Positions 10,453-64,000 are shown, counted from the first letter of the stretch. The stretch is 64,000 nucleotides of DNA from a virus (IMGVR_UViG_3300047539_000055), one strand, 5' to 3'. A program made the numbers and translations. Notes: generated from the letters alone by a model not told the origin.

Positions 10453-10472
10453 TTTTGAAAAGGAGAAATTTA

Positions 10473-10939: not shown

Positions 10940-10945
10940 AATATT

Positions 10946-11333: not shown

Positions 11334-11396
11334 TTTTAGGACTTATCAAATTCGATTCCTCGTCTTGCATAAATACATATAGGAGAATAATTTTAT

Positions 11397-17836: not shown

Positions 17837-17869
17837 TGTTTTCTCCTTTAATTTGTTACAGCAAATCAA

Positions 17870-19846: not shown

Positions 19847-19872
19847 TTTGATCCCTCGATACTCCTTACTAT

Positions 19873-22922: not shown

Positions 22923-23642
22923 TCAAAAATTATGACTATTAGCCACGAATTCCTTCAAAAACTCATTAACTTTGGCTACCTCTTCATAAGAAACTACCAA
23001 TAAAGGAATGTTATGTATCTTGCAATACTCCTTTTTAATTTGATCCCGATGATGCATTTTTTGCTGTTTTGCTTTTGAAGAATTATCATTTATTTCATGT
23101 TCGCCATCGTACTCAATCAATCCAACTAATTTAGTTTGATCAAAGATAGCAAAATCAAAAAGCAACGATCTTTCATTTTTACATCCAAAAATTGTAAATT
23201 GGCTATCAAACTCAATTTTATTTTTTACTAACCAACTTCTGATCAATCTTTCTCCCTTTGATCCTTTACATTTTGGACAACCTTGCCCGGCCAAATGATT
23301 ATTTGGTCGTTGAGGGAATTTTCCATGAACAGGGCAAATAATTTCTATCTTGGTTGCACTATTCACATAATCTACTAACGAATAATTATATTTTGATTGA
23401 TGAATACAGTTTGCTTTGATTATGAATGTCTGTTTATCCAATTTTTGATTATTCGAACACTTGGCGCATCCTTGCCCATTTAGATGATTTTTCGGTCGTT
23501 GCAAAAATTCTCCATGCACAGGACAAACGATGATTCCTTTGGTTTGATTATCGAAATAAATGAATCTGCTATAATCGTATACCTGATTAAAAATCTGATT
23601 GGCTTTTTCAGCAAATTCATCTCGTGTATTTTTTCGTCTCAT
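22923..23642 (-). CDS. Putative homing endonuclease (CPxHGxF repeats plus Vsr-like domain)
   Basis: CPVHGEF.QRP.NHL.GQGC x2; FDFAIF...LIEYDGEH. Confidence 0.8.
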   Translation of the reverse strand: MRRKNTRDEFAEKANQIFNQVYDYSRFIYFDNQTKGIIVCPVHGEFLQRPKNHLNGQGCAKCSNNQKLDKQTFIIKANCIHQSKYNYSLVDYVNSATKIEIICPVHGKFPQRPNNHLAGQGCPKCKGSKGERLIRSWLVKNKIEFDSQFTIFGCKNERSLLFDFAIFDQTKLVGLIEYDGEHEINDNSSKAKQQKMHHRDQIKKEYCKIHNIPLLVVSYEEVAKVNEFLKEFVANSHNF

Positions 23643-35645: not shown

Positions 35646-36134
35646 TTATTTATCGTCGCTATATGAAAAATCCTCGTCAATCGTGCCAACCTTGAATTTG
35701 ACAAATTCAATTTCAAAATCAGGAACTTCTTTGGGCACTTCGCCTCTATACCTGAGAGCCAATGTAATATGTGGAACATACTCTGGATAATCAGATACCG
35801 CACCAAGTTTGATGGTTTTATCAAATAATTTTTGCGCTCTCGGTGCAGTCAAGACAAGCACAAGCATTTTATCATCACCAAAAACTTTCCACTCTTTACA
35901 AGTTGCCTTGATCGGCAACGCAACAGGAATATCTGCCACTGCTGGAACAGATTTTGTTGAATATACTATTGTACAATGATAATCCTCAACATCAACCAGA
36001 CGAGCAATACTCTGTTCTTCCATCCATTTATATAATTTTTCTCTACATTCTTTTGTTGGCAATAAAGCCGCATAAGTTCCATGGTCTTTTGTTTTAGCCA
36101 CTTCTTCTACTAAAAATTCACTGAATAATTTCAT
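35646..36134 (-). CDS. acb1: 2H phosphoesterase, T4 gp57B/Acb1 (anti-CBASS nuclease)-like
   Basis: GTYAAL, YHCTIVYS and YVPHITL (two HxT motifs). Confidence 0.8.
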   Translation of the reverse strand: MKLFSEFLVEEVAKTKDHGTYAALLPTKECREKLYKWMEEQSIARLVDVEDYHCTIVYSTKSVPAVADIPVALPIKATCKEWKVFGDDKMLVLVLTAPRAQKLFDKTIKLGAVSDYPEYVPHITLALRYRGEVPKEVPDFEIEFVKFKVGTIDEDFSYSDDK

Positions 36135-45352: not shown

Positions 45353-46204
45353 TCAATCGTCTGCATCTCGCTCTTGTTTCATATCGGCGGCGGTCCATAA
45401 TGGCACTTTTCCTAGCAATGTCAAATGGTCAGATTTGAACCACGCAGTGCTTTCGCAATCATAACCATAGGTAAAATCTGAAAATCCATCGTATGAAGAA
45501 CGACCAAAATTATAATGATGAACGCAATCAAAATGACGAGCGATATGTTGCCACGGAAAATCTTTCTGTAACAAATAACCAGAATCAAATCCTATCTCCC
45601 TTATCCTTTTCCATTCTTCGGGATCAGCATACGCCGTATTTTCCCTTCCAAGAGTAGCAAACATTTCATACATACATTTGGCATCATTTGTGGAATCAAT
45701 TTCACATACTGTAGTGCCTGGCTTTACATCATAAAGATAGCCAAGTTGTCCTTGACCTTTCATTTTATCTGGTAATCCTCCCTCTTGAACAAAATCATTC
45801 CAAGAACTTGTCCATTTTCCATTTGATTTTTCTTTTGCTGTGCTTGTCCATAAGGCAGAATTAGTAGGTTTTTGTCCACCGACATTTGGAGTAGTGTTAA
45901 CCAAAATTGGAGCGCCTTCAAACATAATACTTTCGTTGGCTAAATCAATCATTCGTTGATATTCTGGTTTAAGATTTCCTTCATCGTCATACGCATATTG
46001 AGCGCGGTTTTGAAAAATATAATCAGAAAATTCTTTTTTAGTGTGATAACTTTCTACTTTTCTTGGAACAAAAAGTTGCTTCGTTCCATTTGGCATTTTT
46101 GTCATCCCTTGCTCTTTATAATATTCAAGCATCTCTCGTTCGCGTTCCACAGGATCATATGGAGCCACAACTTTCTTTCGTCTTGTCAATTCTGTAAGTC
46201 TCAT
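45353..46204 (-). CDS. Putative head-cargo protein
   Basis: MRLTEL N-terminus; ANE|SIMFE|G linker; KP...LWTS and YGYDCES..WF block. Confidence 0.6.
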   Translation of the reverse strand: MRLTELTRRKKVVAPYDPVEREREMLEYYKEQGMTKMPNGTKQLFVPRKVESYHTKKEFSDYIFQNRAQYAYDDEGNLKPEYQRMIDLANESIMFEGAPILVNTTPNVGGQKPTNSALWTSTAKEKSNGKWTSSWNDFVQEGGLPDKMKGQGQLGYLYDVKPGTTVCEIDSTNDAKCMYEMFATLGRENTAYADPEEWKRIREIGFDSGYLLQKDFPWQHIARHFDCVHHYNFGRSSYDGFSDFTYGYDCESTAWFKSDHLTLLGKVPLWTAADMKQERDADD

Positions 46205-47547
46205 AATTCTACGCTATTAACTCTATGTACTTTCTTGTGACAGGGTTCACAAAGAGTAAGTCCATTATCAATATCAAATCTAAGTTCTGGATATTTAGCA
46301 AATTCTTTAATATGATGAGCATGGAGGAATCCAGTTGCTTTACAATCCATACATTTATATTCATCCCGCTTAAAAACAGATTTTCTCCAATTTTGATATT
46401 CTTCACTTTTTCTTATAAGAGCATTGGCACTTGCTTTAAAGCCATCCCATTCACTTTCTGTAATTCCTTGTAAAGTACAACTTATCTTTTTACGAGTTGC
46501 TTCTCGTTTTGTTTGTTCTCCTGGCAAATAACAACTTTCCAATCCTAATTTAATTGCCTTCAGTCTAATGGCATCATGTGTTTTCCCCAATATTTCTGAT
46601 ATCTCTTTAAAAGTTTTGGTTTCTGATAATTCGATAAGATTTTCTATTTCACTATTTGTCCAAATACGATCTCTTCTTTTAATATTTCTATATCGCATTG
46701 ATCTTATAATATTTGCGCCTGTGCAACCAAGTTCTTTTCCAATCTGTTCTGATCCTTTCTTTTTCCCCCAATATTCACAATATAACCATGATCTATTACT
46801 AATTGGTTTTTCATCTTCTTTTAAACTTTGACCAGCCATAAGAACTTGTTCTAAAATATTCTTTCCAACAGACTGACCAATTGATTCGTGTAAAATCATC
46901 GCATTATTTTGTATACAGTGACCGCCGATTCCACCAGGATAATCTTTCAACACCGGCCGTTGAACATTTTTCATACCAAGAGATGCATATCCAGAATTAT
47001 AGCTTTTATTTGCTTGCGTGTAAACCAAATCAAAATCTAAACCAAGTTGATCACAATACGCTTTGACCGCTTTTTCAAAAACTATATTCCAACCATAATA
47101 AGTGGTATCCCACAACTTCATCGCTTCTGTGGTTTCTGATTTTGGAGTGGTTACACAATCAATACCAAGCTTTCTAAAAACAACAGCCGCTTCTTCTGCT
47201 CTTGCTCCACCAAAATATTTGGTGAAGGTATAAATTCCACTAACCAAATGTGGATGAACTCCACGAATCGGAGAATGCACAGCATTGAAATAAGATGAAG
47301 TGCTAACATCCACAGTGGAATGGATAATTACCAATCCATCCTTGGTAAGATATTTATCAAGATATTTTTGAACTGCGTCTACAAATTCATCATTGAAAGG
47401 AATACAGATATGAATAATGCTGAATTTAGCTGATATTGGTAATACCCCAATATCCAGCCCTTCAACTTTTAGAAATTGTCCTTCGGATAGCACAGTTATT
47501 AATGCCTTACCAACTTGACCTTTACTACCAATTACGAGATGGCTCAT
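46201..47547 (-). CDS. Nucleotide-sugar dehydrogenase-like domain fused to HTH and HNH endonuclease
   Basis: GSKGQVG, IHSTV, GIGGHC; then W...VFKRD.YKC..C.....AHH...NGLTLC..CH. Confidence 0.8.
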   Translation of the reverse strand: MSHLVIGSKGQVGKALITVLSEGQFLKVEGLDIGVLPISAKFSIIHICIPFNDEFVDAVQKYLDKYLTKDGLVIIHSTVDVSTSSYFNAVHSPIRGVHPHLVSGIYTFTKYFGGARAEEAAVVFRKLGIDCVTTPKSETTEAMKLWDTTYYGWNIVFEKAVKAYCDQLGLDFDLVYTQANKSYNSGYASLGMKNVQRPVLKDYPGGIGGHCIQNNAMILHESIGQSVGKNILEQVLMAGQSLKEDEKPISNRSWLYCEYWGKKKGSEQIGKELGCTGANIIRSMRYRNIKRRDRIWTNSEIENLIELSETKTFKEISEILGKTHDAIRLKAIKLGLESCYLPGEQTKREATRKKISCTLQGITESEWDGFKASANALIRKSEEYQNWRKSVFKRDEYKCMDCKATGFLHAHHIKEFAKYPELRFDIDNGLTLCEPCHKKVHRVNSVEL

Positions 47548-47556
47548 ATAATATCC

Positions 47557-48351
47557 TTATACAAATTTGCTAAATGCTTCTTGTAATGCAGAAGTTAGTC
47601 CACCATCCTTTTCACATGGTAATGAACAAAATTGTTGATCTACACTATGTACATTTTTGAAAGTATTCTGACAAGATGGACACACTTTTTTAGTGGCGTG
47701 ACTTGCATTTTGAAATTCCTTATATGATAGCACCTTTCTTGTCTTTTCATTTTTTGACTCACGCCAAAACGCCATAGCTGGACTATAGGAACGAACGGGT
47801 TCTGGTTCTGCCATTGTTGCCCAATTTTGTATTTCTTCTTTTACTTCATCTTTTTTTCCCTCCCAACTTGGATATAATGGTGGAACTGAATATTCCACAG
47901 TAAACCAATCACCGGGGGTTCTAATTTCCAATGCGGCAAAAACTCTTTGTAAAGTTGCTTCATCCTTATTAGCAAATTCAATTACTGTATGAGCATATCC
48001 AACTGTTCCTGCAAAACGAACTCTAACAGTTCCACTTAAAAGACTAGGATCATCATGCATTCGTGCAACTACATCACGCAACTCATAATGCATTCTACCA
48101 ACATAAACATGATTTTTGGGAGTAATCAAAGCGGCAGGGTGATCTATGTTAACTTTTTTAAGTTTTGCAAATTGGTTACGTGTGGCTTCATCCAAAACTT
48201 CTCTATCGCCAATTTCTGGCGTAATGCCACAGCCAAAAAATTTCTTACTCAGAGTTCCTTTCTTTGGATTCCCACCAAGCACAGGGCCGACAGATGCAAC
48301 TTTATCAGTTGCTCTTAGTGTTCCAGGTTTAGATGACTTTTTCTTTTTCAT
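47557..48351 (-). CDS. Hypothetical putative head-cargo protein
   Basis: VLDE|A and LQE|A sites; C-terminal CPSC...FCSLPC. Confidence 0.55.
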   Translation of the reverse strand: MKKKKSSKPGTLRATDKVASVGPVLGGNPKKGTLSKKFFGCGITPEIGDREVLDEATRNQFAKLKKVNIDHPAALITPKNHVYVGRMHYELRDVVARMHDDPSLLSGTVRVRFAGTVGYAHTVIEFANKDEATLQRVFAALEIRTPGDWFTVEYSVPPLYPSWEGKKDEVKEEIQNWATMAEPEPVRSYSPAMAFWRESKNEKTRKVLSYKEFQNASHATKKVCPSCQNTFKNVHSVDQQFCSLPCEKDGGLTSALQEAFSKFV

Positions 48352-49742
48352 TAGTTTGACACCACGCTTATTTTGAAATCTTTAACTGTAAGTCTTGGTC
48401 TGAGTGAAAGTGGTAATTCTATTTTATATCTCTCAAAACTTCCCACCGCATAAACTACATCATCTCTAGTTTCCACATCTGCAACAATATATCTACGCTC
48501 CAACGTATAATTTATTTTTCTAACCAAGACATATAATGCGGCTCCTCTTTCTTCACTTTTACGATTAAAATAATTATATCCGATTGTTTTTGCCGCTAAA
48601 CGAATCCCTTCCTTTACTGCATCAAGAAGTTTCGTACCTGGTTTGAAATCGTATCGTTGCTTATCAAAAGTTTCAATATGCCAATTTGGAAATTCTTTTT
48701 CAAATGCTTCTTTCACATCATAAGTAAAATGTTCTCGTACATCTGTTGGCATAACATACATTGATTTGGTCTTCGGATCAAGTTTCAAATACCCGCGATC
48801 ATAACTATCAAAATGGGGTGCAAATCCACCTGTCATTCGTCTCTTATTTATAATGTCATGAAATCGAGTGGTATGCATTGCATAATGTCCTTTACGAATT
48901 GTCAATCCATATGTTGGATAATAAATCCATAGATATGTTCCAAACCTTGTTGTATCTTCTACACCCTCGACTACTCGCTTCGCTGGACTCCTCTTTGCAG
49001 TCCAAGGAACCACCACAAAGTTATTGCTTCTAATTCCTGGTCGCAAATTTTCTGGCGGCGTAACCACATACTTTTCGTATGTTCCTTTTACCAAAAGAGA
49101 GTTACCAAGTCGTGTTATCTTTGCCACAATATATCTACCAGCCAATCTTTGCGCAATTTCCTTCTTCAATAGTTCCAAACGCTCAAGAGAATCACTTTTT
49201 TCGAAAGTACCACCTGGCGGATCAAATCTTATAGACATACGAGCCAAATCAATGTATTCATCAATTCCATCTATAATTGCCTCTTTTACCGCCCCCATTG
49301 GTTTCCAATTATCTCCTTTATAGGAATCAAACTTGACAATCTCCCAATTTGGAAATGTTTTTTTGAATATCTTCTCCATTGGATGTGCAAAAAATTCGTG
49401 AACATCTGTTGGATAGAAATACAATACATGATTATCTACATCGGTTTGAGCATATCCTCTATCAAAATCATCATAATCAGTATCAGACTGATTCATTATG
49501 TTACCAAAAACTCTGCCGTGGGCCGCGTAATTTCCTTCACCAATGAGCAATCCTACAGTTGGATCATAAATCCATACATACTTTCCAGTAAATCTTGGAT
49601 TACTAATATCTGCATTACGCCATTTAGCAAGCGCTTCGTTCTTGGCAGGTTCATATAAACCTCGTGTATGGACAGGTTCATTAGTCTCTATCCATTCATC
49701 ATCACCAGACGAGTTAGATTGCCAAAATTCTTGTAACAGCAT
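48351..49742 (-). CDS. Putative head-cargo polyprotein with A-B-A-B domain duplication
   Basis: Two copies of Y.WIY.PT.GL...H...DRGY...PTDV.E and two of RYIVA......G..E.Y....P..LRP. Confidence 0.7.
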   Translation of the reverse strand: MLLQEFWQSNSSGDDEWIETNEPVHTRGLYEPAKNEALAKWRNADISNPRFTGKYVWIYDPTVGLLIGEGNYAAHGRVFGNIMNQSDTDYDDFDRGYAQTDVDNHVLYFYPTDVHEFFAHPMEKIFKKTFPNWEIVKFDSYKGDNWKPMGAVKEAIIDGIDEYIDLARMSIRFDPPGGTFEKSDSLERLELLKKEIAQRLAGRYIVAKITRLGNSLLVKGTYEKYVVTPPENLRPGIRSNNFVVVPWTAKRSPAKRVVEGVEDTTRFGTYLWIYYPTYGLTIRKGHYAMHTTRFHDIINKRRMTGGFAPHFDSYDRGYLKLDPKTKSMYVMPTDVREHFTYDVKEAFEKEFPNWHIETFDKQRYDFKPGTKLLDAVKEGIRLAAKTIGYNYFNRKSEERGAALYVLVRKINYTLERRYIVADVETRDDVVYAVGSFERYKIELPLSLRPRLTVKDFKISVVSN

Positions 49743-49754
49743 TTCAATTCCTCT

Positions 49755-49955
49755 TTATGTTCTTTTGATCAACGTAGGACTAACGGTTTTACGATCTTTT
49801 CTATTCTTTTTGATTGTGCTATATATTGAAGAGGCTGGATCACCGCCAAAAAATTGACCTTTTGGTGGGGTTCCGCCAGCAATCGTGGTTCCCATATTTC
49901 CGGCCGAAGTTGACCCTCCAGATGATGTTTCTTGAATGATTTCAGAAATTCTCAT
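49755..49955 (-). CDS. Small putative head protein
   Basis: MRISEIIQE|TSSGGSTSAG; TAAATA upstream. Confidence 0.6.
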   Translation of the reverse strand: MRISEIIQETSSGGSTSAGNMGTTIAGGTPPKGQFFGGDPASSIYSTIKKNRKDRKTVSPTLIKRT

Positions 49956-49997
49956 AGTTCACCTTCAGTATTTACCAATCTTTTGAGATTTCCAAGA

Positions 49998-51758
49998 TTA
50001 TTTTCCTTGTAAATCAATTCTGAAATAACTATCACCGTCAGAATCTTTCAATTTTTTCACTGAATATCTTTTAGCCAATTTTTCCCACGCCGATTTAGCA
50101 TACAGTGATCTTGTAAAATCACTAACAATATAAGAATATCCAGCTTTTTTGGCTTCATGAATCATTCTATCGTATAGCATTTGACCAAGACCAGTATTAT
50201 GCCAGTTACCTCTTTCTGTTAATTTACTTGTAGTTATTTGAATGCCATTGAGTTCTATACACGAAATGTCTCCACAACTATCAGATTTCATTGGGCGAGC
50301 TATTATTACCCCTTCACTAAAACCAGAAATATTATTTTTATCAATTGCTCTAATTTCTATACCATTTTCGTCACTTTTTACTTTCCACGTCAACTTTGAA
50401 ATCTCGGCATCACGATCATTGTAATGACGATAACCGAAATCTGGAGACTCAGCCACTTTTATTCTGCTCAAGACAATATAAAAATATGAATGAGGAATGT
50501 ATGTATGTGAATCTCTATATCGGACTGGATATCTCTTTCTCAACTTTTCCCATGCCTGATCAGCGTCATAACTTCGTGTAGTATCCGAACGAAATTCTCT
50601 ACAACCTTTTGACTTTGCCAAATCAATAGCCTTGTCATATAACATTTGTCCAAGACCAGTTCCTTTCCATTCCTTTACAATTTCGCTTCTCAAAACATTC
50701 ATACTTGATGATGAGAATATAAAACTAAGAACCATTTTTCCAATTTCATTATTTTCATTTATTGCTTCTATTATAAATGATTGATGATCTACATTCTTGG
50801 GGCCACTTCTTATATTAAACTTTACTGATGACAATTCTTTATCACGATCATTGAATCGTGAATACCCAAAATCTGGAGACTCCTTCAATGGAATTTTTGT
50901 CAGGTCAATTCGATAAACTGTTTTCAATGCGTTTGCTGGGCCTTTCTTATTTGGAACTTTTTCAACTGAATATCGTTGTCTCAATCTATCCCATGCACTT
51001 TCGGCATCACTTGTTCTGAAAAATCCAGACTCAAAATAATGATAACCCATTTTCTTTGAGAGTTGAATTGCTTTATCATACAATATTTGACCAACGCCAG
51101 TTCCTTGCCATTCGCGAGTTATTTGAATTCGTGTAACTTCTATAACATCATTATTTCCAAATGAAAAACAACGAATTTTTGTCCATGGATCATTTTGAAT
51201 GTTAATCTCAAATCCAGGAGCATTTGGTGGTTCTCTTTCCACAACGAATTTGATTTTCTTTATGTCCTTATCTCTGTTGTTGAATTGAGAGTAGCCAAAA
51301 TCTGGAGACTCTCTCATAAAAAATTTCTTGACATTCATTGGATTATATCGTTTTCTCGCTTCCCACGGAGCCTTCAAAAACATTTTGGATGACTTATAGA
51401 TAAAAATATCTCGCGGAGTAAAAATTACATTTGAAACTTTGAAAAATTGTTCACGCTTTTCACTCCATCGTTCATATTTTCCAAACGGAATATCAATATC
51501 GTAACATTCTTTACCCATCCACGCTCTAACCCAATAATGATCGTTATCCTTATCAATAATAGATGTTTTTACGCCGAAAATATCATATTTAATACAGTTT
51601 GCCATGACTTTCGCAACATCATTACATAATCCATAAGAACCTCCCCAATTATCATATTCCCATTGAACTTTTTGAACCACATAAGGCTTCAAGGCCATCA
51701 GCGCAGCCTTCAATGGTCGTTCAATAACGGATTCAGAAATCAAATCATCAACAAACAT
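49998..51758 (-). CDS. Polyprotein with three tandem GNAT acetyltransferase domains
   Basis: GTGVGQILY, GTGLGQMLY, NTGLGQMLY, each preceded by ESPDFGY. Confidence 0.8.
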   Translation of the reverse strand: MFVDDLISESVIERPLKAALMALKPYVVQKVQWEYDNWGGSYGLCNDVAKVMANCIKYDIFGVKTSIIDKDNDHYWVRAWMGKECYDIDIPFGKYERWSEKREQFFKVSNVIFTPRDIFIYKSSKMFLKAPWEARKRYNPMNVKKFFMRESPDFGYSQFNNRDKDIKKIKFVVEREPPNAPGFEINIQNDPWTKIRCFSFGNNDVIEVTRIQITREWQGTGVGQILYDKAIQLSKKMGYHYFESGFFRTSDAESAWDRLRQRYSVEKVPNKKGPANALKTVYRIDLTKIPLKESPDFGYSRFNDRDKELSSVKFNIRSGPKNVDHQSFIIEAINENNEIGKMVLSFIFSSSSMNVLRSEIVKEWKGTGLGQMLYDKAIDLAKSKGCREFRSDTTRSYDADQAWEKLRKRYPVRYRDSHTYIPHSYFYIVLSRIKVAESPDFGYRHYNDRDAEISKLTWKVKSDENGIEIRAIDKNNISGFSEGVIIARPMKSDSCGDISCIELNGIQITTSKLTERGNWHNTGLGQMLYDRMIHEAKKAGYSYIVSDFTRSLYAKSAWEKLAKRYSVKKLKDSDGDSYFRIDLQGK

Positions 51759-51759
51759 T

Positions 51760-52641
51760 TTACCACATACCCCTTCTTAGTTTTAGTTGTTTTCCATCCC
51801 ATTGAAATGCTTGATAGTATTCGGTTCCAGAACCAGTCTTCAATTCAAAATCTACTAAGTCTGATATTCTCTTCATCTCCCTAATAGTAAAACTTTCCAG
51901 TTTTGGAGACATTTTTTGTATAGTTTCAAAATAAGAAAACCCCTCATGAACAACTACACGAAGCAACCCTGCTTTATACGCATCCTCATAATCATGAAAG
52001 AAACCCATCATCTTAGCAGTTCCTAAATGTGTTCTTTCATATCCATTTGGAACAAATCTACCACTTGGAAATAACCAACCATGACCATTGATCGGCGCAG
52101 TTTTACTACCAACCCTTTTTATAAACTCGGAAGATCGCCATTTTTCAATGGCCCATTTGTCAACTGCTTTCTTTGCGGGTGAATTGAAATCTTCATAAAC
52201 GTTACGTTGTCGTCTTTGTGGAACTAACTGTCTTCCATCCCAATCAAATCTTTTTTGAAAGCCAGTTCCAGAGCCACTCACAAATTCTAATCCATAACCT
52301 TTAGGAAACCTTTTTATGGCCTTCAAAACAATCTTTTCCAATTCTGGAGACATACGTTTGTCGGTTTCTAAATAAGCTTCGCCGTCGCCGCCTCTACCAA
52401 ATCCCATAAATGCTACACGAAGTAATCCAGCAGTAAAGGCTTCATCATACCCACGACCATATCCCATTTTGTCGGCCATCGCTACATGACTTCTTCCTCC
52501 ATTTGAAATAAATGTTCCATCTGGAAATAACCATCCTTGATCAGTAATCGGCACAGTTTTACTTCCATACTTCTTCTTATACTCAAGAGGAGTAGGAGGT
52601 TTCTGCCGATAAACTTCGGGAATGAAATCTTCAATCAGCAT
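51760..52641 (-). CDS. Two-domain repeat protein (GWLFPxGxF...H...G..R domain x2)
   Basis: Internal duplication joined by VYE|DFNSPAKKA. Confidence 0.7.
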   Translation of the reverse strand: MLIEDFIPEVYRQKPPTPLEYKKKYGSKTVPITDQGWLFPDGTFISNGGRSHVAMADKMGYGRGYDEAFTAGLLRVAFMGFGRGGDGEAYLETDKRMSPELEKIVLKAIKRFPKGYGLEFVSGSGTGFQKRFDWDGRQLVPQRRQRNVYEDFNSPAKKAVDKWAIEKWRSSEFIKRVGSKTAPINGHGWLFPSGRFVPNGYERTHLGTAKMMGFFHDYEDAYKAGLLRVVVHEGFSYFETIQKMSPKLESFTIREMKRISDLVDFELKTGSGTEYYQAFQWDGKQLKLRRGMW

Positions 52642-52642
52642 T

Positions 52643-55600
52643 TTACCACGCCCTTCGGTTCTGTGAAACTAATTGTTTACCATCCCAATTAAATCTTTTA
52701 TAAAATGGAGAACCTGAACCGCTAATAAGAGTTGCATCTTGGGAACTGCGCATTCTTTTGATTGCTTTTATGACAAGATTTTCCAATCTTGGTGACATTT
52801 GTTGTGACGTTTCAAATTGATGAATATATATTGACAAACGAATCAAACCTGCTTCATACGCCGCATCATATCCATATTTGAATCCCATTTTAAGGGCTGT
52901 CGTTACATGACCTCTTGTTATTCCATTTGGAACAAAAGTTCCATTTGGCAATAACCAACCATCATCATCAATCGGGGATGTTTTACTACCATTTCTTTTT
53001 ATAAAGGCTACGCCACTTGCTTTCGTAGCGGGTGTATCGTAGGATTCAAATATATGATTTGCGGCGAATCTTCCACCACGCGGCGGAATCAAAGAATCTT
53101 CAACCGGAACGTAAGCCATGATATCTTTGTCACCACGTAGATAGGCAGCATAGGCGCGATGATGCCCATCTACAATTGGGCTATCATCATCCCAATAATC
53201 GCGAGGCTGAAGAATAACCGGAGGAAGTGGTGTTAATCGACTCCCATACTCTTTGGCTTGCTCTTCACTGAAACAACCCTCTTCAGCCCGAATCAAATCA
53301 AGAGGTACCTTCTTAAGCTCGTACCAATCAGCTTGGAGAAGATGATTAACTTGCTCAGGTGTGACTGAGTGATGCCACAGAGACGCCAGATGCTTTGCTA
53401 CGTCATCACGGCTAATTAGGGATGATGCCGTATGAACGAAAAAACTGTGTCTTGCTTTCGTAGCGGGTGAACCGTAGGATTCATACATATTACGTCGTTT
53501 TGCGTTCCGAACAAATTCTTTACCAGTCCATTCATATTCATCATTTCCAAAACTTTCACCACATAAAAGAAAAATATTTGGAAACGAAGACTGAATATCT
53601 GTGGCTATCTTTTCTGATCTTTTGCAAACCCGTTCATATGGTAAAATAGTTTGAATAACACATTCTCCTCTCCCTTGACAAGAAACATGAAGCCATCCTT
53701 TGCGCCAAGCAGATGTATAAGTTTTAATACCAGCCTTTTTCAAAGTATTCCAATGTCCTTCCCCTGGCGCATTTGGAATAAACTTTCCTGTTGGCAATAA
53801 CCAACCATCCTGACCAACTTGTTGTACGGAGATGCCTTCATTTATGGACTCATCCCTTCGTCTATAAGTATCAAAATATCTACCATTCCATTCAAGTGTC
53901 TTCTTTTTGAAACCTGACTCTCCCCATATTGACAATATAATGCTTGGATACTTTTGTGCCAAGCGTGTACGAACTACATTCATTAATTTTTTACTATTTT
54001 CTGTTCCAACTGTTGTAGTATCTAACTCAACAGTAGTTCTATTCAGGATATATAAATGAATCCATCCCTCCTTATATGCTTCTTTATAAGAATCCATACC
54101 ATGATCACGAAGTATCATAAGATGATTAGATAATCTAAAATTGAGTGGTATAAACTTTCCACTGGGTAGTATCCAACCATCATCGTTGATTTGATTATCA
54201 ACGGCTTCCGTCACTGGTTCTTTTGGAATATATAATTTTCCTGTTTTTATATTTCCTACTAGAGAATATTTGAATCTATCGCCAGTATATATTGTAATAA
54301 AGTTGTTTCCATAAATCCCATTAATACGATTAGCAATTTGTAGCCACTTTGGGCCGTGACCGTCTATATCTACTTCTTCTGTACCTGATCCATCATCGTC
54401 ATCATCATTTTTAGACCAATTCGGTTCAGACTCCTCATCTTCTATATCTGGTTTCTCATTGTCAAGCCAACGCGGGAATATATTATTTAAAAAATCTTCA
54501 ACATGGCACAATTCATGAGCCAAAACAGATTTATAAATAAACGCATCTCTTGCCGCATCTGGATTGATTCCTACATACAAGGTATGATTAATTGCCCAAT
54601 AAGTAACACCCAAACAATACTTTTTCATTTTTACTGAATGTATCCCTATTGGTGGAACTTTACTAATTTTGAAATGTGATAACAATTCATGAAGAATGTC
54701 ATCTCTTTCTGCTTGAGAAAGAATAGCCTTACGAAACATTCCAGCGTTGGCTCTATATCCATCTTCCGTTATTGAGTGTCCTTCAAAAATTTGGTTCAAA
54801 TTTTCTTTAACTTCTACAAGTTCAGAAAAATTATATATATCATTTGCCTCTTGAATCGGAACCCCAAGTCTTTTAGCAGCCTTCTTCATAAGAATCATAA
54901 CATCCTTATCGCTAATAGAAGAATTCATCGCTGATCGCCATATTTGAATTTTTTGCTGGACGGTTGCTTGTGGATCACGAAGAATATCTCTCATTGGTGT
55001 AGCTCGTGGTCCTGCCTCGGTACTACTTGGGTCACCAGTTTCTTGGCGGCTAATGACATCAATCTTGTCAAATGAAAAGGGAATTTCCCCTTTGTTATTT
55101 GATACTCCGTTATATTTTTTTACGTAACTCAATGCGTTAACTTGATCTTCACCAACTACTACCGTTAATTGGGTATATCCCATTTCTTGTAATTTACGAA
55201 GAACGCGAGTTAAATCTGGCATTTCGTCTGTTGCTGCAAAAAATATTTTCTTTTGGGACGGAAAAACCTTACGATAGATGGCAAGTTTTTCTCTGGGAGT
55301 AATTGGATCATCCTTCCCCATGGTACGACTTACTACGAAGTACGGATCGCCTCCCATTTTCTTCGCTTGAGTAAGAACACTGCTGGCAAGAAACATATGT
55401 CCTTTATGTCCCATACCTCTTCCCCATCCAAGCACAGCAATTTTGCTATTACCAGTTCGTTGCAAATCCTCTTGAAGACGATCAGCCTTCATTTTTGGAT
55501 TCCAATTTTTTTGATCAATAGCTTTAATGAATTGACCGGGAAGATCATACTTAAATTTTTTATCAGAATGAGCTTGAACATATCCCTCTGGATTTGTTTG

Positions 55601-57337
55601 ACGAATACCGCCATGAGTTCCTTGTGCCAAAACACTAAGCAACTTATATTTTTCTGCCGTAAGCATTTCCATAGCAGCAAAAATTGCTTTCAATCCTGGA
55701 TGATCCAACATTTTTTTAGTTTTTTCAGCACTAAGATTTTTAGCAGCCCAAGCTATAAATTGTTTAGTAACTTGTTCTACACGAAAATTTTGATTGAAAA
55801 ATTTGTATAATATATCGCCGGGACGAGACAACCCCGGCTGACCAGCAACAAAAGAATCAATGATTTTAGCGTTCTTACTGATAAAAGCTGCAACTTTATC
55901 CAATCCCTTTATATCAATTTTAGGAATTGATTCTACATATGTTGTTCCCACGACGAGAACATCATCTGATGATAATTTTGAAACATTTGGATATCTTTCT
56001 TCATCTGCTCCAATATATTTGTAATAGCCAGTAGCGGCGATCATTACTTTTGCTTTTGAAATCCGTTGACCAAGTTCAGAGTCAGCAGGAACATGAAATT
56101 CTGTAACATTTGGCTTAAAATCCCACTCATTCGTTTTAGGATTTAATGTTGCAGGATCACCGGGCCAAAATAACAATCCACCTTCAATAAATCCTTTCTT
56201 TGGACTTATCTTTTCAAAATAGCTCCATAATTTAGATAAATTTTGAGCGTATTTTTGACGAAGTAATTCTTGACCTTGTTCAACATTTCCAGTAGTAGCA
56301 ATAAATTTTTCTACATCTTTTGAACTACCCAGCAAAGTTTGAACTCCACCCTTAGTAGTTTGAACTCCTCTTTTGAGATATTCCACCGCATTCTTAGGTA
56401 ACATATGAAACTTGCCAGTATCATCACGGCCCCAATATAAAACTGGGCTTCCATCCATTTTTAATTCTATACCCTTTCCTTCACTACTCATCTCCTTCAA
56501 TCGTTCAACAGCATGAAGTCCACCAATGCTACCATTGGTAAAAACTAAATCTTCAATATGTTGATATTTGCGACCCACCTGGGGGGCAGCCGCCTCTGTA
56601 ATCGGACGAACAGCATCCCATCGTTCATAACTGTAAGCCAAATCAACCATCGCTCGTTTTTGTGCTGGATCGGGTATAGCAGCAATAATACTTTCAACAC
56701 TACCAAGATCAGATGCTTTAGCGTTTGAACCGATTAAATAGTGAGCAATTTCGTTTAAGTCGTCGGTAATGAAACTTGATTTCTTTCCATCGGAATCTCG
56801 CATAAAAAGACCTTCATCAGAACTCCAAACGAAACCTTGGCTTGTTGCCAATGCATTAATAAGTAATTGCTTATGTAAACCTTTAAACGGACTATTTTTA
56901 GGAAGGATATGTGTATGAAACAATCTGATGCGTTCTGCATTTTTTACAGGCTTAATATCAACTTGATAAAATTTACCTTTAAATGGAAGCAAAATATGAA
57001 CTGTAATTCCAGTTTTTCTGGTCTTTAATCCCTTTTGTTGAAGATATTGCTCAAATTTTTGACGAATTATTTTTGAATCAGAAATTTTGAAAGTATTTTC
57101 CAAGTGAGTTAGATCAACTAAAACATCTAAATCTCCGCTCATTTTTCCGCTGGTGGGTGTGGCTGCACTACCAATTACGTAAGCTTGTAAACCAATATCA
57201 TGAAGATACCTATCAGTTTCAGCTACCAATTGAGAAGCAATGACTTGATCAAAATGACTACTTTCTGGCCAAATATTACCGCCTTCAAATAGTGTTGTAC
57301 TTCTCCAAGCATGATTATACAAGTCATTTAATAGCAT
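52643..57337 (-). CDS. Polyvalent protein: Pol-beta NTase, KxDG ligase-like, HxGH nucleotidyltransferase, SprT-like protease, ParB-like and 3x GWxLPxG domain
   Basis: GSAA...SGDLDV; ELKMDGSP; GRGMGHKGH; AHELCH...GHG..W; VDGHHR. Confidence 0.8.
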   Translation of the reverse strand: MLLNDLYNHAWRSTTLFEGGNIWPESSHFDQVIASQLVAETDRYLHDIGLQAYVIGSAATPTSGKMSGDLDVLVDLTHLENTFKISDSKIIRQKFEQYLQQKGLKTRKTGITVHILLPFKGKFYQVDIKPVKNAERIRLFHTHILPKNSPFKGLHKQLLINALATSQGFVWSSDEGLFMRDSDGKKSSFITDDLNEIAHYLIGSNAKASDLGSVESIIAAIPDPAQKRAMVDLAYSYERWDAVRPITEAAAPQVGRKYQHIEDLVFTNGSIGGLHAVERLKEMSSEGKGIELKMDGSPVLYWGRDDTGKFHMLPKNAVEYLKRGVQTTKGGVQTLLGSSKDVEKFIATTGNVEQGQELLRQKYAQNLSKLWSYFEKISPKKGFIEGGLLFWPGDPATLNPKTNEWDFKPNVTEFHVPADSELGQRISKAKVMIAATGYYKYIGADEERYPNVSKLSSDDVLVVGTTYVESIPKIDIKGLDKVAAFISKNAKIIDSFVAGQPGLSRPGDILYKFFNQNFRVEQVTKQFIAWAAKNLSAEKTKKMLDHPGLKAIFAAMEMLTAEKYKLLSVLAQGTHGGIRQTNPEGYVQAHSDKKFKYDLPGQFIKAIDQKNWNPKMKADRLQEDLQRTGNSKIAVLGWGRGMGHKGHMFLASSVLTQAKKMGGDPYFVVSRTMGKDDPITPREKLAIYRKVFPSQKKIFFAATDEMPDLTRVLRKLQEMGYTQLTVVVGEDQVNALSYVKKYNGVSNNKGEIPFSFDKIDVISRQETGDPSSTEAGPRATPMRDILRDPQATVQQKIQIWRSAMNSSISDKDVMILMKKAAKRLGVPIQEANDIYNFSELVEVKENLNQIFEGHSITEDGYRANAGMFRKAILSQAERDDILHELLSHFKISKVPPIGIHSVKMKKYCLGVTYWAINHTLYVGINPDAARDAFIYKSVLAHELCHVEDFLNNIFPRWLDNEKPDIEDEESEPNWSKNDDDDDGSGTEEVDIDGHGPKWLQIANRINGIYGNNFITIYTGDRFKYSLVGNIKTGKLYIPKEPVTEAVDNQINDDGWILPSGKFIPLNFRLSNHLMILRDHGMDSYKEAYKEGWIHLYILNRTTVELDTTTVGTENSKKLMNVVRTRLAQKYPSIILSIWGESGFKKKTLEWNGRYFDTYRRRDESINEGISVQQVGQDGWLLPTGKFIPNAPGEGHWNTLKKAGIKTYTSAWRKGWLHVSCQGRGECVIQTILPYERVCKRSEKIATDIQSSFPNIFLLCGESFGNDEYEWTGKEFVRNAKRRNMYESYGSPATKARHSFFVHTASSLISRDDVAKHLASLWHHSVTPEQVNHLLQADWYELKKVPLDLIRAEEGCFSEEQAKEYGSRLTPLPPVILQPRDYWDDDSPIVDGHHRAYAAYLRGDKDIMAYVPVEDSLIPPRGGRFAANHIFESYDTPATKASGVAFIKRNGSKTSPIDDDGWLLPNGTFVPNGITRGHVTTALKMGFKYGYDAAYEAGLIRLSIYIHQFETSQQMSPRLENLVIKAIKRMRSSQDATLISGSGSPFYKRFNWDGKQLVSQNRRAW
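53016..53483. repeat. 33-nt direct repeat (31/33 identical) flanking the ParB-like module
   Basis: 53016-53048 and 53451-53483, encoding ESYxxPATKA. Confidence 0.9.
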
Positions 57338-57357
57338 AGTATGAGTATTTATTCAAA

Positions 57358-57933
57358 CTACTCTATATGTTGTTCCCTTTGATCTAACGACACATCGGAA
57401 GCCTTGACAGCTTCAATTTTTTTGATTATTGCAGGGTTAAAAATCACAACGATGGTTTCAGCCCTTCCAGCAAAACCACGAGATATTTCATAATCGGCAC
57501 CGTGATTTACAATAAACTTTCTCAATTCAACCGTATTTTTTGGTGACAAACATTGATAATTTACACAAAGGTTAACCAACACTTCAAGAAATAGCTTTCC
57601 AAGTCTGTTGATATTGTTCGTCAAATCTTCAATCATTGGCTTGCGATACTGACCAATTACATATCGTTTAACAAAATCAATTGCTTCTTGTAACTCAATA
57701 GTGACTTTAGAAATATCTGTTCCCTTTTCAATTGTGAGTTTAAAAGTTGTTCCGCCGCCTTTGGCGTACTTTCTGGCAGTTTCATAATGAGTAGTGAGAT
57801 ATAAACCTGGGCCGTATTCCCATCGGCCTTTCTTAGCGGGAATCATATTCATCTGATTGAATTGAAGATTTCTTCCACCATGCCAAAGGGTCATGGTTTG
57901 CGACACATCTTCAATTACTTCGTTTATCTTCAT
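57358..57933 (-). CDS. ADP-ribosyltransferase (polyvalent-protein H-Y-E type)
   Basis: LWHG...YGPGLYLT....A..YA...E.IVVIF; MKINEVIE N-terminus. Confidence 0.7.
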   Translation of the reverse strand: MKINEVIEDVSQTMTLWHGGRNLQFNQMNMIPAKKGRWEYGPGLYLTTHYETARKYAKGGGTTFKLTIEKGTDISKVTIELQEAIDFVKRYVIGQYRKPMIEDLTNNINRLGKLFLEVLVNLCVNYQCLSPKNTVELRKFIVNHGADYEISRGFAGRAETIVVIFNPAIIKKIEAVKASDVSLDQREQHIE

Positions 57934-58463
57934 GTGATTCCATATATCTTGTTAAGTTTGGAAATAACCTCTGGAAACCAAGCATTTTTGTAGAGTATTC
58001 CAATTCCGCCAGCCGCGTTCCATTTATTAATATTGTCAGGATGATCATCAATCAAAATATTTGGTCTGCCTTTTGTAGTGGCGTATTTTTCTTTATCAAA
58101 TTCATAAATTACTGGAATAACAGATACTCCATGCCGATGTAACCAAATATTTTTTCCAGCAATACAATCTTTTGTACCCGGTTCTCGTACAGGTCGGCTC
58201 AAAAAAGTAACTGGAATATACTGAGATAATATCCATCCCAACATACTCTTGCCATTACTTTCCCATTCCGCATTAGCAAAAAAGTCCTTAAGATTAGCTG
58301 TATTTAACACATTTGTCCAATACTTATTGTTGAATCCCAACAAATCATATTCTGCCAAGGATACATTATTGTATTCAGCGATAGCTTTATCAAGCCATAC
58401 AACAACACCATCTAAATCCAAATATATTTTAGCGGGGTGATGTTCGATTTCTTCTATTCTCAT
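57930..58463 (-). CDS. HAD-family 5'(3')-nucleotidase
   Basis: IYLDLDGV, GK..W, ILIDD...N...W...GG.GI. Confidence 0.85.
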   Translation of the reverse strand: MRIEEIEHHPAKIYLDLDGVVVWLDKAIAEYNNVSLAEYDLLGFNNKYWTNVLNTANLKDFFANAEWESNGKSMLGWILSQYIPVTFLSRPVREPGTKDCIAGKNIWLHRHGVSVIPVIYEFDKEKYATTKGRPNILIDDHPDNINKWNAAGGIGILYKNAWFPEVISKLNKIYGIT

Positions 58464-58552
58464 ATTCATATTTATTCCTTTGTGTTATAATAGAATTATA
58501 TACTAATTACGCAGAATCTTCTGAAAAAAGATAAATAAAGAGGAGACAACTT

Positions 58553-61758: not shown

Positions 61759-64000
61759 TTAAATTTCCTTTTTAATTTTGATTGATTCCTTGACTGCAAC
61801 CTTAATCTTTTTTGCTTCAATCACCAATACATCAGTGACCCAATCAAGATGAATTGTGCTGTTATTCTTAATCTTTCCCTTCAACAATTGAATGCTGAGA
61901 GGATAGTTGATAATATCATCCACAGTTCCAGCTATCTTTCTTGCGCCATACTCACTGTTCTTATTTAGTTTCAGAATATGAGTAATGAGCGCTTCACTCG
62001 CCACGATACGAAGATTACGAGAAGTAAGCATCTTACCAATTTCAGTAATTCTTTCAGCCACAATCCTGCGATAGCTGAGTTCGTCCAAATCAACAAACTC
62101 AACAATACTAGTCATACGGCCACGCATTTCAGTCAGGAAGAAATCATTGACTGCCTTAGCAGATGCAGATTTTCCTGTTTTATTTGTGTCAAAACCCAAC
62201 TGAGCCTTTGCGCCCTCACGAGTTCCAAGATTGCTTGTCATGATGATAATGCAATTCTTGGCACTGGCAACCTTACCAGTAGTGCCAGTAATTTCACCAT
62301 CATCAAGCAAACTCAAAAATACATTGAATGTATCAGGATGTGCCTTTTCAACTTCATCAAAAAGAATAACACTGTTTGGATGCTTCAACAAATCATTGAC
62401 AAGCTGACCTTCACCAGTTTTACCGTCACCAAAACCAACATATCCAGGAGGCGCACCAATCAATCTAGCAACGGCATGTTTCTCCTGAAATTCACTCATA
62501 TCATACTTGGTAAAATGCATATTCAAGTTTTCTGCTAACTGACGAGCCAAATATGTCTTACCAACACCACTCGGCCCAACAAATAGAAAACTACCAATTG
62601 GTTTCTTTGGATTCTTGAGTCCTGCTTGACTAATAATCAAGCATTGTGACACACGATCAACTGCCTTATTTTGATGGAAAACGCTGTTATTGAGTCTATC
62701 ACCCAGAGTTAGAATAAACTTGGCAGCATCCCCGCTTGTGGCTTCACTCTTTACAGTAATTCCAGTCATATCAGTAATTTCACGAATGATGCTTGCTCTA
62801 TCAACCTTGTTCCCTTCAGTTTCAAGAACCTTCTTACGAGCGCAAGCACTGTCCAAAATATCAACTGCCTTATCTGGCAACTTTTTGTCTGGTTGATACT
62901 TGACGGTCAATTCAATGGCGGCATCAAGAGCCGTATCATTGATTTTTACCTTATGAAATTCTTCAATTGTAGAACGAGTTCCCTTCAAAATTTCAAGAGT
63001 TTCTGCAAGAGATGGTTCATCAACTGCCGTTACACGAAAACGGCGCATAAGAGCAGTATTTTTTTCAAAAGTTTGGCGGAATCCTTCCCAAGTTGTTGAC
63101 GCAATTACCTTGATTGTTCCACGACTCAATTCGGGCATGAGCATTGAAGCCAAGCCAAGGCCCATTTGTCCTTTGCCATCGCCCGTATCAATCTGGTGGG
63201 CTTCGTCAATAAACAAAATGGCATTTGGTTTGGTGGCAAGTTCTTTCAAAATATCTGTGACCTTCTCTTCAAAGTCACCACGGAATTTGCTTCCAGAAAT
63301 TAGCGTGCCAACATCAAGGCTGAAAATTTCTTTGCCCTTGAGTGAGGATGGAACCTTACCATCATTGATACGCTGTGCCAAGCCTTCAACAATCATAGAC
63401 TTGCCAACACCAGGATCACCAATAAGCAACACATTGCATTTCTTGCGCTTGCTAAGAGTATGGGCAATTGTAAAAATTTCCTTATCCCTACCAATTAGCG
63501 GATCGGCAACCTTATCTTTTGCTTTTTCGTTTAGATTCTGGCAATACTGCGTAAGTGCGCTTTCAGAGGAACCTCCCATATTATGTACGATATCCACGGT
63601 AGCAGTTATATCCTTTCTGAGTTGAATAATCATTTCCTCGGTTATGCCGTACTTACTGAGAAAGTAAGAGGCGTGAGTTTCACGAGCATTGAGCAAAGTA
63701 AGCAACATATCGGAAATATCAACTTCCCGTTTTTCTGCTTTTGCCAAATCTTGGATAGTGCGGATTATGCTTGCAACTTCGGATGTTAGTTGACCTTCCA
63801 TAACATTAGGGTCAGGGTTTTTCATTTGATTCTTTAGCAGATGGGAATTTTCCTGAATATGCTCAAGTATTTCAACGCTCAACATATTCATTTCAATACC
63901 TTTGGCAGTGAAATATCGTCTAATCAAATTGCTTTGAATTAACGCACATAGCATATGCTCGGTAGTAATTGTAGTTTGCTCCATACTCATTGCTATAGCA
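61759..64000 (-). CDS. clpA: ClpA/ClpB-family Hsp100 ATPase (5' end beyond the window)
   Basis: Two AAA modules GDPGVGKS and GPSGVGKT; LPDKAVD, DMSEF.EKH, LIGAPPGYVG. Confidence 0.92.
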   Translation of the reverse strand, partial: AIAMSMEQTTITTEHMLCALIQSNLIRRYFTAKGIEMNMLSVEILEHIQENSHLLKNQMKNPDPNVMEGQLTSEVASIIRTIQDLAKAEKREVDISDMLLTLLNARETHASYFLSKYGITEEMIIQLRKDITATVDIVHNMGGSSESALTQYCQNLNEKAKDKVADPLIGRDKEIFTIAHTLSKRKKCNVLLIGDPGVGKSMIVEGLAQRINDGKVPSSLKGKEIFSLDVGTLISGSKFRGDFEEKVTDILKELATKPNAILFIDEAHQIDTGDGKGQMGLGLASMLMPELSRGTIKVIASTTWEGFRQTFEKNTALMRRFRVTAVDEPSLAETLEILKGTRSTIEEFHKVKINDTALDAAIELTVKYQPDKKLPDKAVDILDSACARKKVLETEGNKVDRASIIREITDMTGITVKSEATSGDAAKFILTLGDRLNNSVFHQNKAVDRVSQCLIISQAGLKNPKKPIGSFLFVGPSGVGKTYLARQLAENLNMHFTKYDMSEFQEKHAVARLIGAPPGYVGFGDGKTGEGQLVNDLLKHPNSVILFDEVEKAHPDTFNVFLSLLDDGEITGTTGKVASAKNCIIIMTSNLGTREGAKAQLGFDTNKTGKSASAKAVNDFFLTEMRGRMTSIVEFVDLDELSYRRIVAERITEIGKMLTSRNLRIVASEALITHILKLNKNSEYGARKIAGTVDDIINYPLSIQLLKGKIKNNSTIHLDWVTDVLVIEAKKIKVAVKESIKIKKEI

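Follow-up and report, generated by a model that had tools for sequence, protein, structure and literature searches.

A cluster of leader-tagged, multi-module proteins with predicted prohead-protease sites in an uncultured jumbo phage

The internal proteins of bacteriophage T4 (IPI, IPII and IPIII) and its ADP-ribosyltransferase (ART) Alt begin with a short tag, the capsid targeting sequence (CTS), in which hydrophobic residues flank an acidic one and which ends in a hydrophobic residue, any residue and Glu (h-x-E). The T4 CTS reads MKTYQEFIAE (PMC8442874); targeting depends on its residues 4 and 7, processing on residues 8 and 10 (PMC9026906). The internal proteins are cut once and Alt twice, at ITE-6 (PMC5694885) and LTE-619 (PMC8442874, PMC9026906, PMC5694885), and the prohead protease gp21 also cuts the scaffold and core proteins into small pieces (PMC5694885). 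Here we analyse a 64,000-nucleotide stretch of viral DNA (IMGVR_UViG_3300047539_000055; "the window") and, within it, a cluster of ten tightly packed genes at 45353–58469 on the minus strand, most of whose products start with a CTS-like leader and several of which string together enzyme modules. We put the probability at roughly 65% that the cluster is a hypervariable cargo locus, in which the tag would load chains of enzymes into the head, a gp21-type protease of the Peptidase_S77 family would cut them at h-x-E↓ junctions (the arrow marks the predicted cut, P1 and P3 the first and third residues before it), and the enzymes would be injected with the DNA.

From the leaders, the motif statistics, the positions of the junctions, the protease gene, and the conservation and covariation seen among relatives, we infer the following course of events. 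During prohead assembly, a tag of 8–10 residues (M-x-h-x-E/D-h, often followed by h-x-E) would dock each cargo protein to the scaffolding core; an active S77 protease would cut after Glu in h-x-E↓(S/A/G/D), removing the tag, and would sever the multi-module chains at every exposed h-x-E↓ junction; and the released single-domain enzymes, of ~13–27 kDa, would stay among the DNA in the head and exit through the tail at infection. The predicted cargo comprises three GNATs, an ART, nucleotidyltransferases, a ligase-like module, a SprT-like zincin, a ParB-like module, five copies of a domain here called DGW, and a 5'-nucleotidase. A role in host takeover or counter-defence is likely, because the set matches that of polyvalent proteins, which are predicted to be delivered with the DNA (PMC5512222).

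The likeness to T4 extends to a locus that is hypervariable among relatives while the tag is kept, to cargo proteins unrelated apart from the tag, to an S77 protease in the genome and to an ART among the cargo, although the latter belongs to the H-Y-E group ART-PolyVal and not to the Alt family. Where the T4-type cargo consists of small basic proteins cut once, the proteins here range from 66 to 1564 aa, are mostly enzymatic and multi-module, and have cuts predicted, from the genes alone, at every module junction. The polyvalent proteins described by Iyer, Burroughs, Anand, de Souza and Aravind in 2017 similarly join disparate modules in one chain and share with this locus the zincin/SprT, ART-PolyVal, GNAT, ParB-like and nucleotidyltransferase (NTase) domains (NUDIX in homologues); those authors drew the analogy with polyproteins and proposed embedded zincin peptidases as the processing enzyme (PMC5512222). 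Their account describes release by an embedded peptidase and no loading tag or cleavage code, whereas here the sites match the prohead protease and a CTS-like tag precedes the first module.

In the phiKZ-like giant phages (201phi2-1, phiKZ, SPN3US), many head and ejection proteins are cleaved after Glu by a relative of gp21, some of them repeatedly, and paralogous ejection proteins have common N-termini; the motif there, S/A/G-x-E or A-x-E, puts a small residue at P3, while P3 is hydrophobic here, as in T4, and the substrates are mostly structural proteins or RNA polymerase subunits rather than strings of effector enzymes with a site per domain border. The polyproteins made by RNA viruses of eukaryotes, too, are single products cut by a viral protease at short conserved junctions into enzymes, but there is no homology, and here the protease is encoded separately and the cutting would take place inside an assembling capsid. 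Earlier papers already cover CTS-loaded proteins, the multi-site head proteolysis of phiKZ-like phages and, for polyvalent proteins, the comparison with polyproteins (PMC9026906, PMC5694885, PMC5512222). In our literature search we met no account of polyvalent effector chains that bear a CTS-type tag, have prohead-protease motifs where their domains meet or are processed by a prohead protease, and none of tag and junction codes that differ by lineage.

Leaders, cleavage motif and head module

The leader M-x-(L/I/V/M)-x-(E/D)-(F/L/I/V/M) opens eight of the ten cluster genes and only one of the 85 other open reading frames of at least 40 aa within the window (Fisher p = 3e-9). All eight leaders named in the original prediction, which had stated that most genes start in this way, were found: MRLTEL (g283), MLLQEF (g463), MRISEI (g66), MFVDDL (g586), MLIEDF (g293), MLLNDL (g1564), MKINEV (g191) and MRIEEI (g179), the last read from the third codon, where its homologues start. 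The two genes without a leader are g448, a fusion with an HNH endonuclease, and g264. The sequences that follow the leaders are unrelated to one another. We rejected the idea that the leader reflects repeated DNA or a common translation-initiation region, since the codons differ (52% nucleotide identity over codons 2–6) and the upstream DNA has diverged (35% over 20 bases); what is conserved is a class of residues. Four leaders extend to h-x-E at residues 6–9 (MRISEIIQE↓T, MFVDDLISE↓S, MLIEDFIPE↓V and MKINEVIE↓D). The leaders share the pattern of the T4 CTS, in a register usually one residue closer to the start, and the best explanation, by analogy, is that they work like it.

The cleavage motif was tested as [LIVMF]-x-E-[SAGD], with expected counts taken from residue shuffles. 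The cluster (4337 aa) has 38 matches against 18.8 expected (z 4.7) and the head module 38 against 20.2 (z 4.25), while the other 29 proteins of the window (8246 aa) have 31 against 34.6 (z −0.6); g1564 alone is modestly enriched (12 against 6.6, p = 0.03). About 19–20 of the 38 cluster matches are leader or junction sites and the remainder equals the chance expectation; as the excess of ~19 sites is about the number at leaders and module junctions, the count in domain interiors is near chance. This was the outcome foreseen by the original prediction, which had set enrichment at linkers over domain interiors as a check beforehand, and the T4 parallels that it drew, the CTS and gp21-type cuts after Glu, are those documented in the papers cited above (PMC8442874, PMC9026906, PMC5694885).

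The proposed processing enzyme, judged from its sequence, is a T4 gp21-type prohead core serine protease (Peptidase_S77) at 21235–21879 on the minus strand (PF03420, E 4.6e-25; phrog_207, E 1.4e-53). It carries ILE↓S at residue 21, and TATAAATA lies 25 nt upstream of its gene; this element is not enriched, being found four times against 4.6 expected. The excess of the head module is carried by two minus-strand genes, a presumed scaffold protein of 364 aa that adjoins the capsid gene (17870–18964; phrog_10922), with 10 sites against 2.9 expected, and a presumed prohead core protein of 260 aa (19097–19879), with 7 against 1.0 (p < 0.001 for each). Because T4 gp21 cuts the scaffold and core proteins, this enrichment serves as a positive control inside the window. 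The T4-type major capsid protein itself (16652–17869, minus strand; phrog_138, E 8.6e-98) has two sites, LLE↓G and LRE↓S, in the propeptide at its N-terminus, directly upstream of the conserved shell sequence; the latter site had been noted before in this gp23 homologue and indeed lies in the N-terminal arm.

Two further likenesses between cargo and head proteins were observed. After its leader, the small cluster protein g66 continues with TSSGGSTSAGNMGTT, resembling the predicted mature N-terminus of the capsid protein, SATTGSTSAGNIAT; its homologues in two related contigs (L001 and L005, below) retain a similar Ser/Gly/Ala stretch, and the resemblance is perhaps a coincidence of low complexity. 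Two small head-module proteins (19873–20136 and 20151–20570, minus strand) begin alike, with MELREELEKY..IF(K/S)E↓, and are possibly core proteins of gp67/gp68 type that have propeptides; the cargo leader MELRELFE↓A of L001 resembles their start.

Sites at the module junctions

The junction sites are clearest in g586 (49998–51758, minus strand), which joins the leader MFVDDLISE↓S, a conserved N-domain of 141 aa with no function assigned and, by Pfam matches and repeat layout, three GNAT modules, each beginning E↓SPDFGY (P1 codons 51309–11, 50880–2 and 50448–50). In g293 (51760–52641, minus strand), with the leader MLIE↓DFIPE↓V and two DGW domains (HMM envelopes 5–150 and 151–293), VYE↓D joins the two domains (site residues 148–150; P1 codon 52192–52194), and in its AlphaFold model, built from 26 homologous segments with a mean pLDDT of 83, the sole segment below pLDDT 50 is 144–163, which contains the site. 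Borders can also be set independently of the motif, as the terminal DGW and GNAT copies end (in RRAW and IDLSKV before the stop codon) within a few residues of the site at the internal copies.

The longest chain, g1564 (52643–57337, minus strand), is predicted from Pfam and PHROG matches, site list and module layout to be a polyprotein of at least eight modules: the leader MLLNDL..LFE↓G; an NTase-like module (residues 19–248); DUF6267 with a KxDG motif, ligase-like (249–623); an HxGH nucleotidyltransferase (624–830); a two-site linker; a SprT-like zincin (859–1044); DGW (1045–1167); DGW (1168–1286); a ParB-like module (1287–1431); and DGW (1432–1564). Its N-terminal modules are separated by LFE↓G, ITE↓A, LQE↓D and the group IQE↓A, IFE↓G and ITE↓D, whereas VTE↓A, INE↓G, MYE↓S and IFE↓S fall exactly between the SprT-like, DGW, DGW, ParB-like and DGW modules. 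All ten of these sites had been listed in the original prediction and were recovered in place (P1 codons 57284–6, 56594–6, 55469–71, 54848–50, 54782–4, 54764–6, 54206–8, 53837–9, 53480–2 and 53045–7). Its domain calls fared less evenly: GNAT, DUF6267, the PHROG "cytidyltransferase", ART-PolyVal (through homologues and fold) and the NT5C-like nucleotidase are supported, SprT lies at the threshold (25.9 bits on the excised segment against a cut-off of 25.6, and 18.7 bits on the whole protein), and NTase and ParB are weak, being called from motifs and one weak BLASTP match. A sequence search of the PDB with g1564 gave no match. With SprT at threshold, GNAT, ART-PolyVal and a weak ParB-like call, with g1564 joining DUF6267, HxGH nucleotidyltransferase, SprT-like, ParB-like and DGW modules in one chain, and with a portal gene in the window, the locus has the features by which polyvalent proteins are recognised.

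The DGW domain, of ~120 aa, occurs in five copies in the window (51760–54205, minus strand) and has near-invariant G-W, H, Y, G and W-[DN]-G positions. It is present in only 20 of 1.84 billion representative proteins, always in multi-module chains (among them the homologues P0033, P0036, P0039 and P0041); it has no Pfam match, and its best structural matches (Foldseek E 8e-3, VIA-align Z 5.5) are within noise. By its sequence distribution it is a new, rare domain, found only in such cargo chains.

Junctions of this kind could also arise without any cutting, if the leader and the h-x-E linkers are conserved linker or N-cap sequences kept by recombination at linker DNA, and the proteins are intact multidomain enzymes, packaged or not. 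The DNA does bear traces of recombination: GAGTCTCCAGATTT is identical at all three junctions of g586, module order varies widely among homologues, and direct repeats of 40 nt that are 90% identical (53016–53055 and 53451–53490), encoding the linker E↓SY(D/G)(T/S)PATKA, flank the ParB-like module, whose GC content is 0.473 against 0.34–0.38 in the neighbouring modules. The ParB-like module thus looks like a recently inserted cassette, and modules probably move as cassettes. Recombination, however, does not explain why only P3 and P1 are fixed across 35 GNAT-module junctions of this lineage (P1 is Glu in 35/35 and P3 is I, L, V, M or F in 35/35, while P2 takes nine different residues and the codons vary), nor the enrichment in the scaffold, the leader that ends in the junction motif or the matched change in a second lineage described below. 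We regard an account with no cleavage as unlikely; linker recombination and proteolysis can coexist. The same 35 junctions, together with the 17/17 scaffold and core sites, which were selected by the motif, have hydrophobic P3 residues and so differ from the phiKZ-type S/A/G-x-E.

Relatives and a second junction code

Homologues of g586 (n = 31) and g293 (n = 20) were found only in metagenomes. Synteny with the window, from a ClpB-like gene across the cluster to the DNA polymerase, was seen in three long contigs. In L001, all six cluster genes are tagged (MKISDI, MRLSEI, MELRELFE↓A, MLLAELFE↓S, MRLSEIQE↓S and MRLYEL) against 0/18 genes outside; in L005 the counts are 6/9 and 0/15. The window and these two contigs have the flanks and the tag in common, while the cargo differs and is partly non-homologous. 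The same GNAT module may follow a leader directly (MLLAELFE↓SPDFGY, MKLKDLFE↓TPDYAY, MKVTDFINE↓EPDFGY) or an internal h-x-E↓, and in several proteins the HxGH nucleotidyltransferase module starts nine residues past the leader Glu.

In the cultured T4-like marine phage Melnitz of Methylophilales (L009, MZ577097), adjacent genes at 1284–8356 have CTS-like starts (MKKFSEIIE↓A, MKKFSELTSELIE↓R, MQGFKTFLSE↓A and MLTLINFSKYITE↓D); the protein with MKKFSEIIE↓A is a chain of 650 aa with the same nucleotidyltransferase and seven motif sites. Two other cultured phages, Atu_ph07 and Phosso, were considered as stand-ins and set aside, for they share the Clp-to-polymerase flanks but have no tagged cluster.

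A second lineage carries a different code. Eleven homologues have K-x-A before the SPDFGY header, with P1 = Ala at 13/13 and P3 = Lys at 12/13 junctions, and none of them has an E-type leader, which is found in 16/16 proteins with E-junctions. Several instead open with tags that have K-x-A at their own end, MRNILLQKTA↓G and MRLQNTLFKKA↓Y among them. In Tunturi_5, a cultured phage of Tunturiibacter (L004, PP885688, 9364–15243), gp273 has MAKSRLLKKA↓T and an annotated minor head protein has MKSGLLGRKVA↓G, and L002 (10001–12478) is a further locus of the K-x-A lineage with homologous modules. The motif counts move in parallel: h-x-E-[SAGD] has 114 matches against 56.8 expected (z 7.8) in the lineage of the window and 48 against 40.9 (z 1.1) in the second, whereas [KR]-x-A-[SAGD], a motif defined from the same data that tested it, has 29 against 30.3 and 52 against 23.1 (z 6.2), respectively. 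Asp, Gln or Lys at P1 shows no enrichment in either lineage. At the end of the DGW domain, the same aligned position reads MYE↓S in this lineage and MYA↓G in the second. That the leader end and the junctions change together is what a lineage-specific maturation protease predicts. A search of Tunturi_5 for S77, S78, the protease of the window and an HK97-type capsid found none, the S77 search having no positive control. A P1 Ala before Ser recalls the assemblin sites of herpesviruses.

The covariation bears also on which enzyme would do the cutting. The zincin proposal for polyvalent proteins implies that the embedded SprT-like domain, or a host protease, separates the packaged modules before or after injection, with the prohead protease uninvolved; g1564 has a SprT-like HExxH module, and L005 encodes a tagged, stand-alone SprT-like protein. 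Yet a peptidase domain is missing from most tagged multi-module proteins (g586, g463 and g293), both lineages have SprT-like domains although their junction codes differ, and the scaffold and core proteins are enriched in the motif, which the capsid propeptide also carries, with the S77 protease alongside. The indirect evidence from these sequences favours the prohead protease over an embedded peptidase for the release of the domains, and we hold the zincin route to be unlikely, and slightly less probable than the absence of cleavage. The original prediction had proposed that one targeting peptide loads many effectors, released by gp21; the enrichment at linkers, the S77 gene, the relatives and the covariation lend it support, and it withstood each computational test capable of refuting it; packaging, cleavage and injection are steps that the genomes suggest.

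The tag can be seen coming and going on one cargo family. The stand-alone ART g191 (57358–57933, minus strand; leader MKINEVIE↓D) is placed in ART-PolyVal through homologues and fold, including the H-Y-E-type core: its family has 333 stand-alone homologues, many annotated as PF18760, while the only Pfam match of its own is DUF3990 at 18.9 bits, and the L001 homologue reaches 25 bits, below the cut-off of 31.2. The start of the AlphaFold (AF2) model of g191 (pLDDT 92.4) is disordered, and residue 13 opens the first strand; the best fold match is a chain of the pre-ejectosome of cyanophage A4, a capsid-internal complex (E 2.9e-5), followed by AcrIF11-like proteins and by weaker matches (E 0.008–0.03) to the catalytic domains of cholix and diphtheria toxin and to Tpt1. 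Most members of the family start 2–7 residues from the conserved LWHGG strand, without extension, while a subset has an extension of 12–17 residues, some of them E-type (MKINEVIED.., MKISDLFE↓T.., MRFHEIIAE↓D, MRYHEIIAE↓N). Judging from these alignments, the tag is a detachable add-on in the ART-PolyVal family. A third type of extension, MR[DN]-x-I-x-LVE, was seen on stand-alone ART-PolyVal proteins from other metagenomic contigs (P0068, P0074, P0078, P0087, P0095, P0105, P0114 and P0124), and may be the loading tag of another lineage.

Taken further, large tailed phages may use a general plug-and-play cargo code, under which a lineage-specific N-terminal tag would make virion cargo of any enzyme module and a head-protease motif at each junction would allow modules to be strung together, in at least three versions that track the maturation protease: h-x-E↓ with M-x-h-x-E-h (T4-type), K-x-A↓ with LL-x-K-x-A (the second jumbo lineage, Tunturi_5 included), and MR[DN]-x-I-x-LVE (ART-PolyVal). 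We offer this generalization tentatively, as somewhat less than an even bet.

Remaining genes, genome setting and implications

At one end of the cluster, g179 (57930–58469, minus strand; probable start, by comparison with homologues, at 58463, giving MRIEEI) is an HAD-type, NT5C-like 5'-nucleotidase (phrog_2643, E 1.4e-20) with a leader and spacer of 12 aa before the DxDGV motif; its homologues start MKISDI (L001) and MKIEEL (L005). The protein g66 (66 aa; 49755–49955) has the leader MRISEIIQE↓T followed by a Gly/Ser-rich segment, and its L001 homologue is 321 aa long and starts MRLSEIQE↓S. The orphan g463 (48351–49742) starts with MLLQEF and has an A-B-A'-B' organization; the proposed unit borders carry VKE↓A, VVE↓G and VKE↓G, of which only the border between AB and A'B' is defined independently of the motif, and a database search matched only a fragment of the same protein. 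The leaderless g264 (47557–48351) has a basic N-terminus and two sites, LDE↓A (residue 55) and, at a distance of six residues from the C-terminus, LQE↓A; Pfam and PHROG searches gave no family match. The other leaderless gene, g448 (46201–47547), with a dehydrogenase-like N-domain and an HNH endonuclease (PF01844, phrog_8446, PF00984), is probably a mobile insertion and not cargo. The last gene, g283 (45353–46204; leader MRLTE↓L), has no assigned function and is conserved as the last cluster gene in relatives, with homologues at the same position in L001 (MRLYEL) and L005 (MKINEV). These five genes, like the rest of the cluster, lie on the minus strand.

Outside the cluster, an Acb1 anti-CBASS phosphodiesterase (35646–36134, minus strand; PF23474, E 1.3e-21, matching from residue 19) has an N-terminal extension of 18 aa, MKLFSEFLVEE↓V, whose register is exactly that of the T4 CTS, while RB49 57B is without the extension; its sequence suggests a candidate pre-loaded anti-CBASS enzyme.

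By its sequence, the source is a novel Rak2/GAP32-like jumbo phage, tailed and of the T4 head-assembly type. Profile matches identify a portal, a ClpB-like AAA+ protein, a family-B DNA polymerase and the major capsid protein; the last shares 71% identity with its counterpart in Vibrio phage 2.275.O and ~67% with those of the Rak2/GAP32/CBB group of 350-kb phages, while the DNA polymerase is only ~40% identical to that of any cultured phage. The genome is probably ~353 kb, since a protein identical to g191 is encoded on a metagenomic contig of 353,395 bp. Megablast of the cluster against 50,697 phage records found no nucleotide match, tblastn of g283 and g191 against cultured phages gave no match, g1564 matched only distant "cytidyltransferases" of cyanophages, methylophages and pelagiphages among cultured phages, and IMG/VR pattern scans with g293 and g586 found no relatives. 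A literature search for cyanophage virion data on the cytidyltransferase found nothing.

The window also holds an array of 17 tRNA genes (5023–12180, plus strand; Ala x3, Ser x3, Leu x2, Pro x2, Gly x2, Tyr, Arg, Phe, Thr and Cys) interspersed with small open reading frames, and five genes of homing-endonuclease type (GIY-YIG, HNH and others; 15212–16504, 20570–21235, 22923–23642, 32254–33615 and 46201–47547), three of them inside the head module and the one in the cluster fused to a UDP-glucose/GDP-mannose-dehydrogenase-like domain. A ClpB/ClpA-like double-AAA+ gene (61759–63990, minus strand), inside which the window ends, lies a few kb from the cargo locus; its counterparts are at 1025–4000 in L001 and 2784–5730 in L005, with a DnaJ-like gene adjoining in the relatives. 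Atu_ph07 has the Clp and DnaJ-like pair as well, and Phosso has the Clp gene. These chaperones may be linked to cargo handling.

This neighbourhood brings up another use for the leader, as a tag for machinery such as the ClpB-like and DnaJ chaperones, as a degradation or localisation signal, or as an aid to translation efficiency, on what would be ordinary intracellular early enzymes. The ClpB-like gene is close by, joined by one for DnaJ in every syntenic relative, the genes around the cluster are those of replication, and one tagged protein is an enzyme of nucleotide metabolism. Against this, Atu_ph07 and Phosso retain the flanks from Clp to polymerase without a tagged cluster; the tag fits the spacing of the T4 CTS and ends in a protease motif; the tagged families ART-PolyVal, GNAT, SprT and ParB form the characteristic repertoire of polyvalent proteins delivered by virions (PMC5512222); and a fold like that of ART-PolyVal has been seen inside a capsid, in the pre-ejectosome. 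We consider this the least probable of the three alternatives. Each of them explains some of the data, and none covers together the enrichment in the scaffold, the leader that ends in the junction motif and the covariation of the two lineages.

A number of our observations nevertheless weigh against a cargo locus processed by the prohead protease. The motif is short, so that about half of the cluster matches are expected by chance, and the sites are not depleted inside domains. The second Glu is absent in four of the eight leaders, duplication partly explains the conservation of the g586 junctions, and the covariation between two lineages stands for few independent events in evolution. As head cargo, a 5'-nucleotidase is unusual; the cluster is placed among the replication genes, outside the head module; and scans for sigma-70-like promoters and terminators were at chance level, the promoter scans giving no information on timing. 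An embedded zincin has, moreover, already been proposed as the processing enzyme of polyvalent proteins (PMC5512222), and the phage is uncultured and known only from metagenomes.

Very few injected phage proteins are known, as their discovery needs virion proteomics of cultured phages, although such proteins act before phage gene expression and so decide the first minutes against the host defences. If the cargo code is true, the injected proteome of an uncultured phage would be readable from sequence alone, and the enzyme sets that T4-type and jumbo phages inject could be listed in this way. The proposal that polyvalent proteins are polyproteins would then gain a concrete enzyme, sites and testable neo-N-termini, and some phages would be seen to carry Acb1 or other anti-defence enzymes pre-loaded. 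The tag itself may become a tool for loading foreign proteins into non-T4 capsids.

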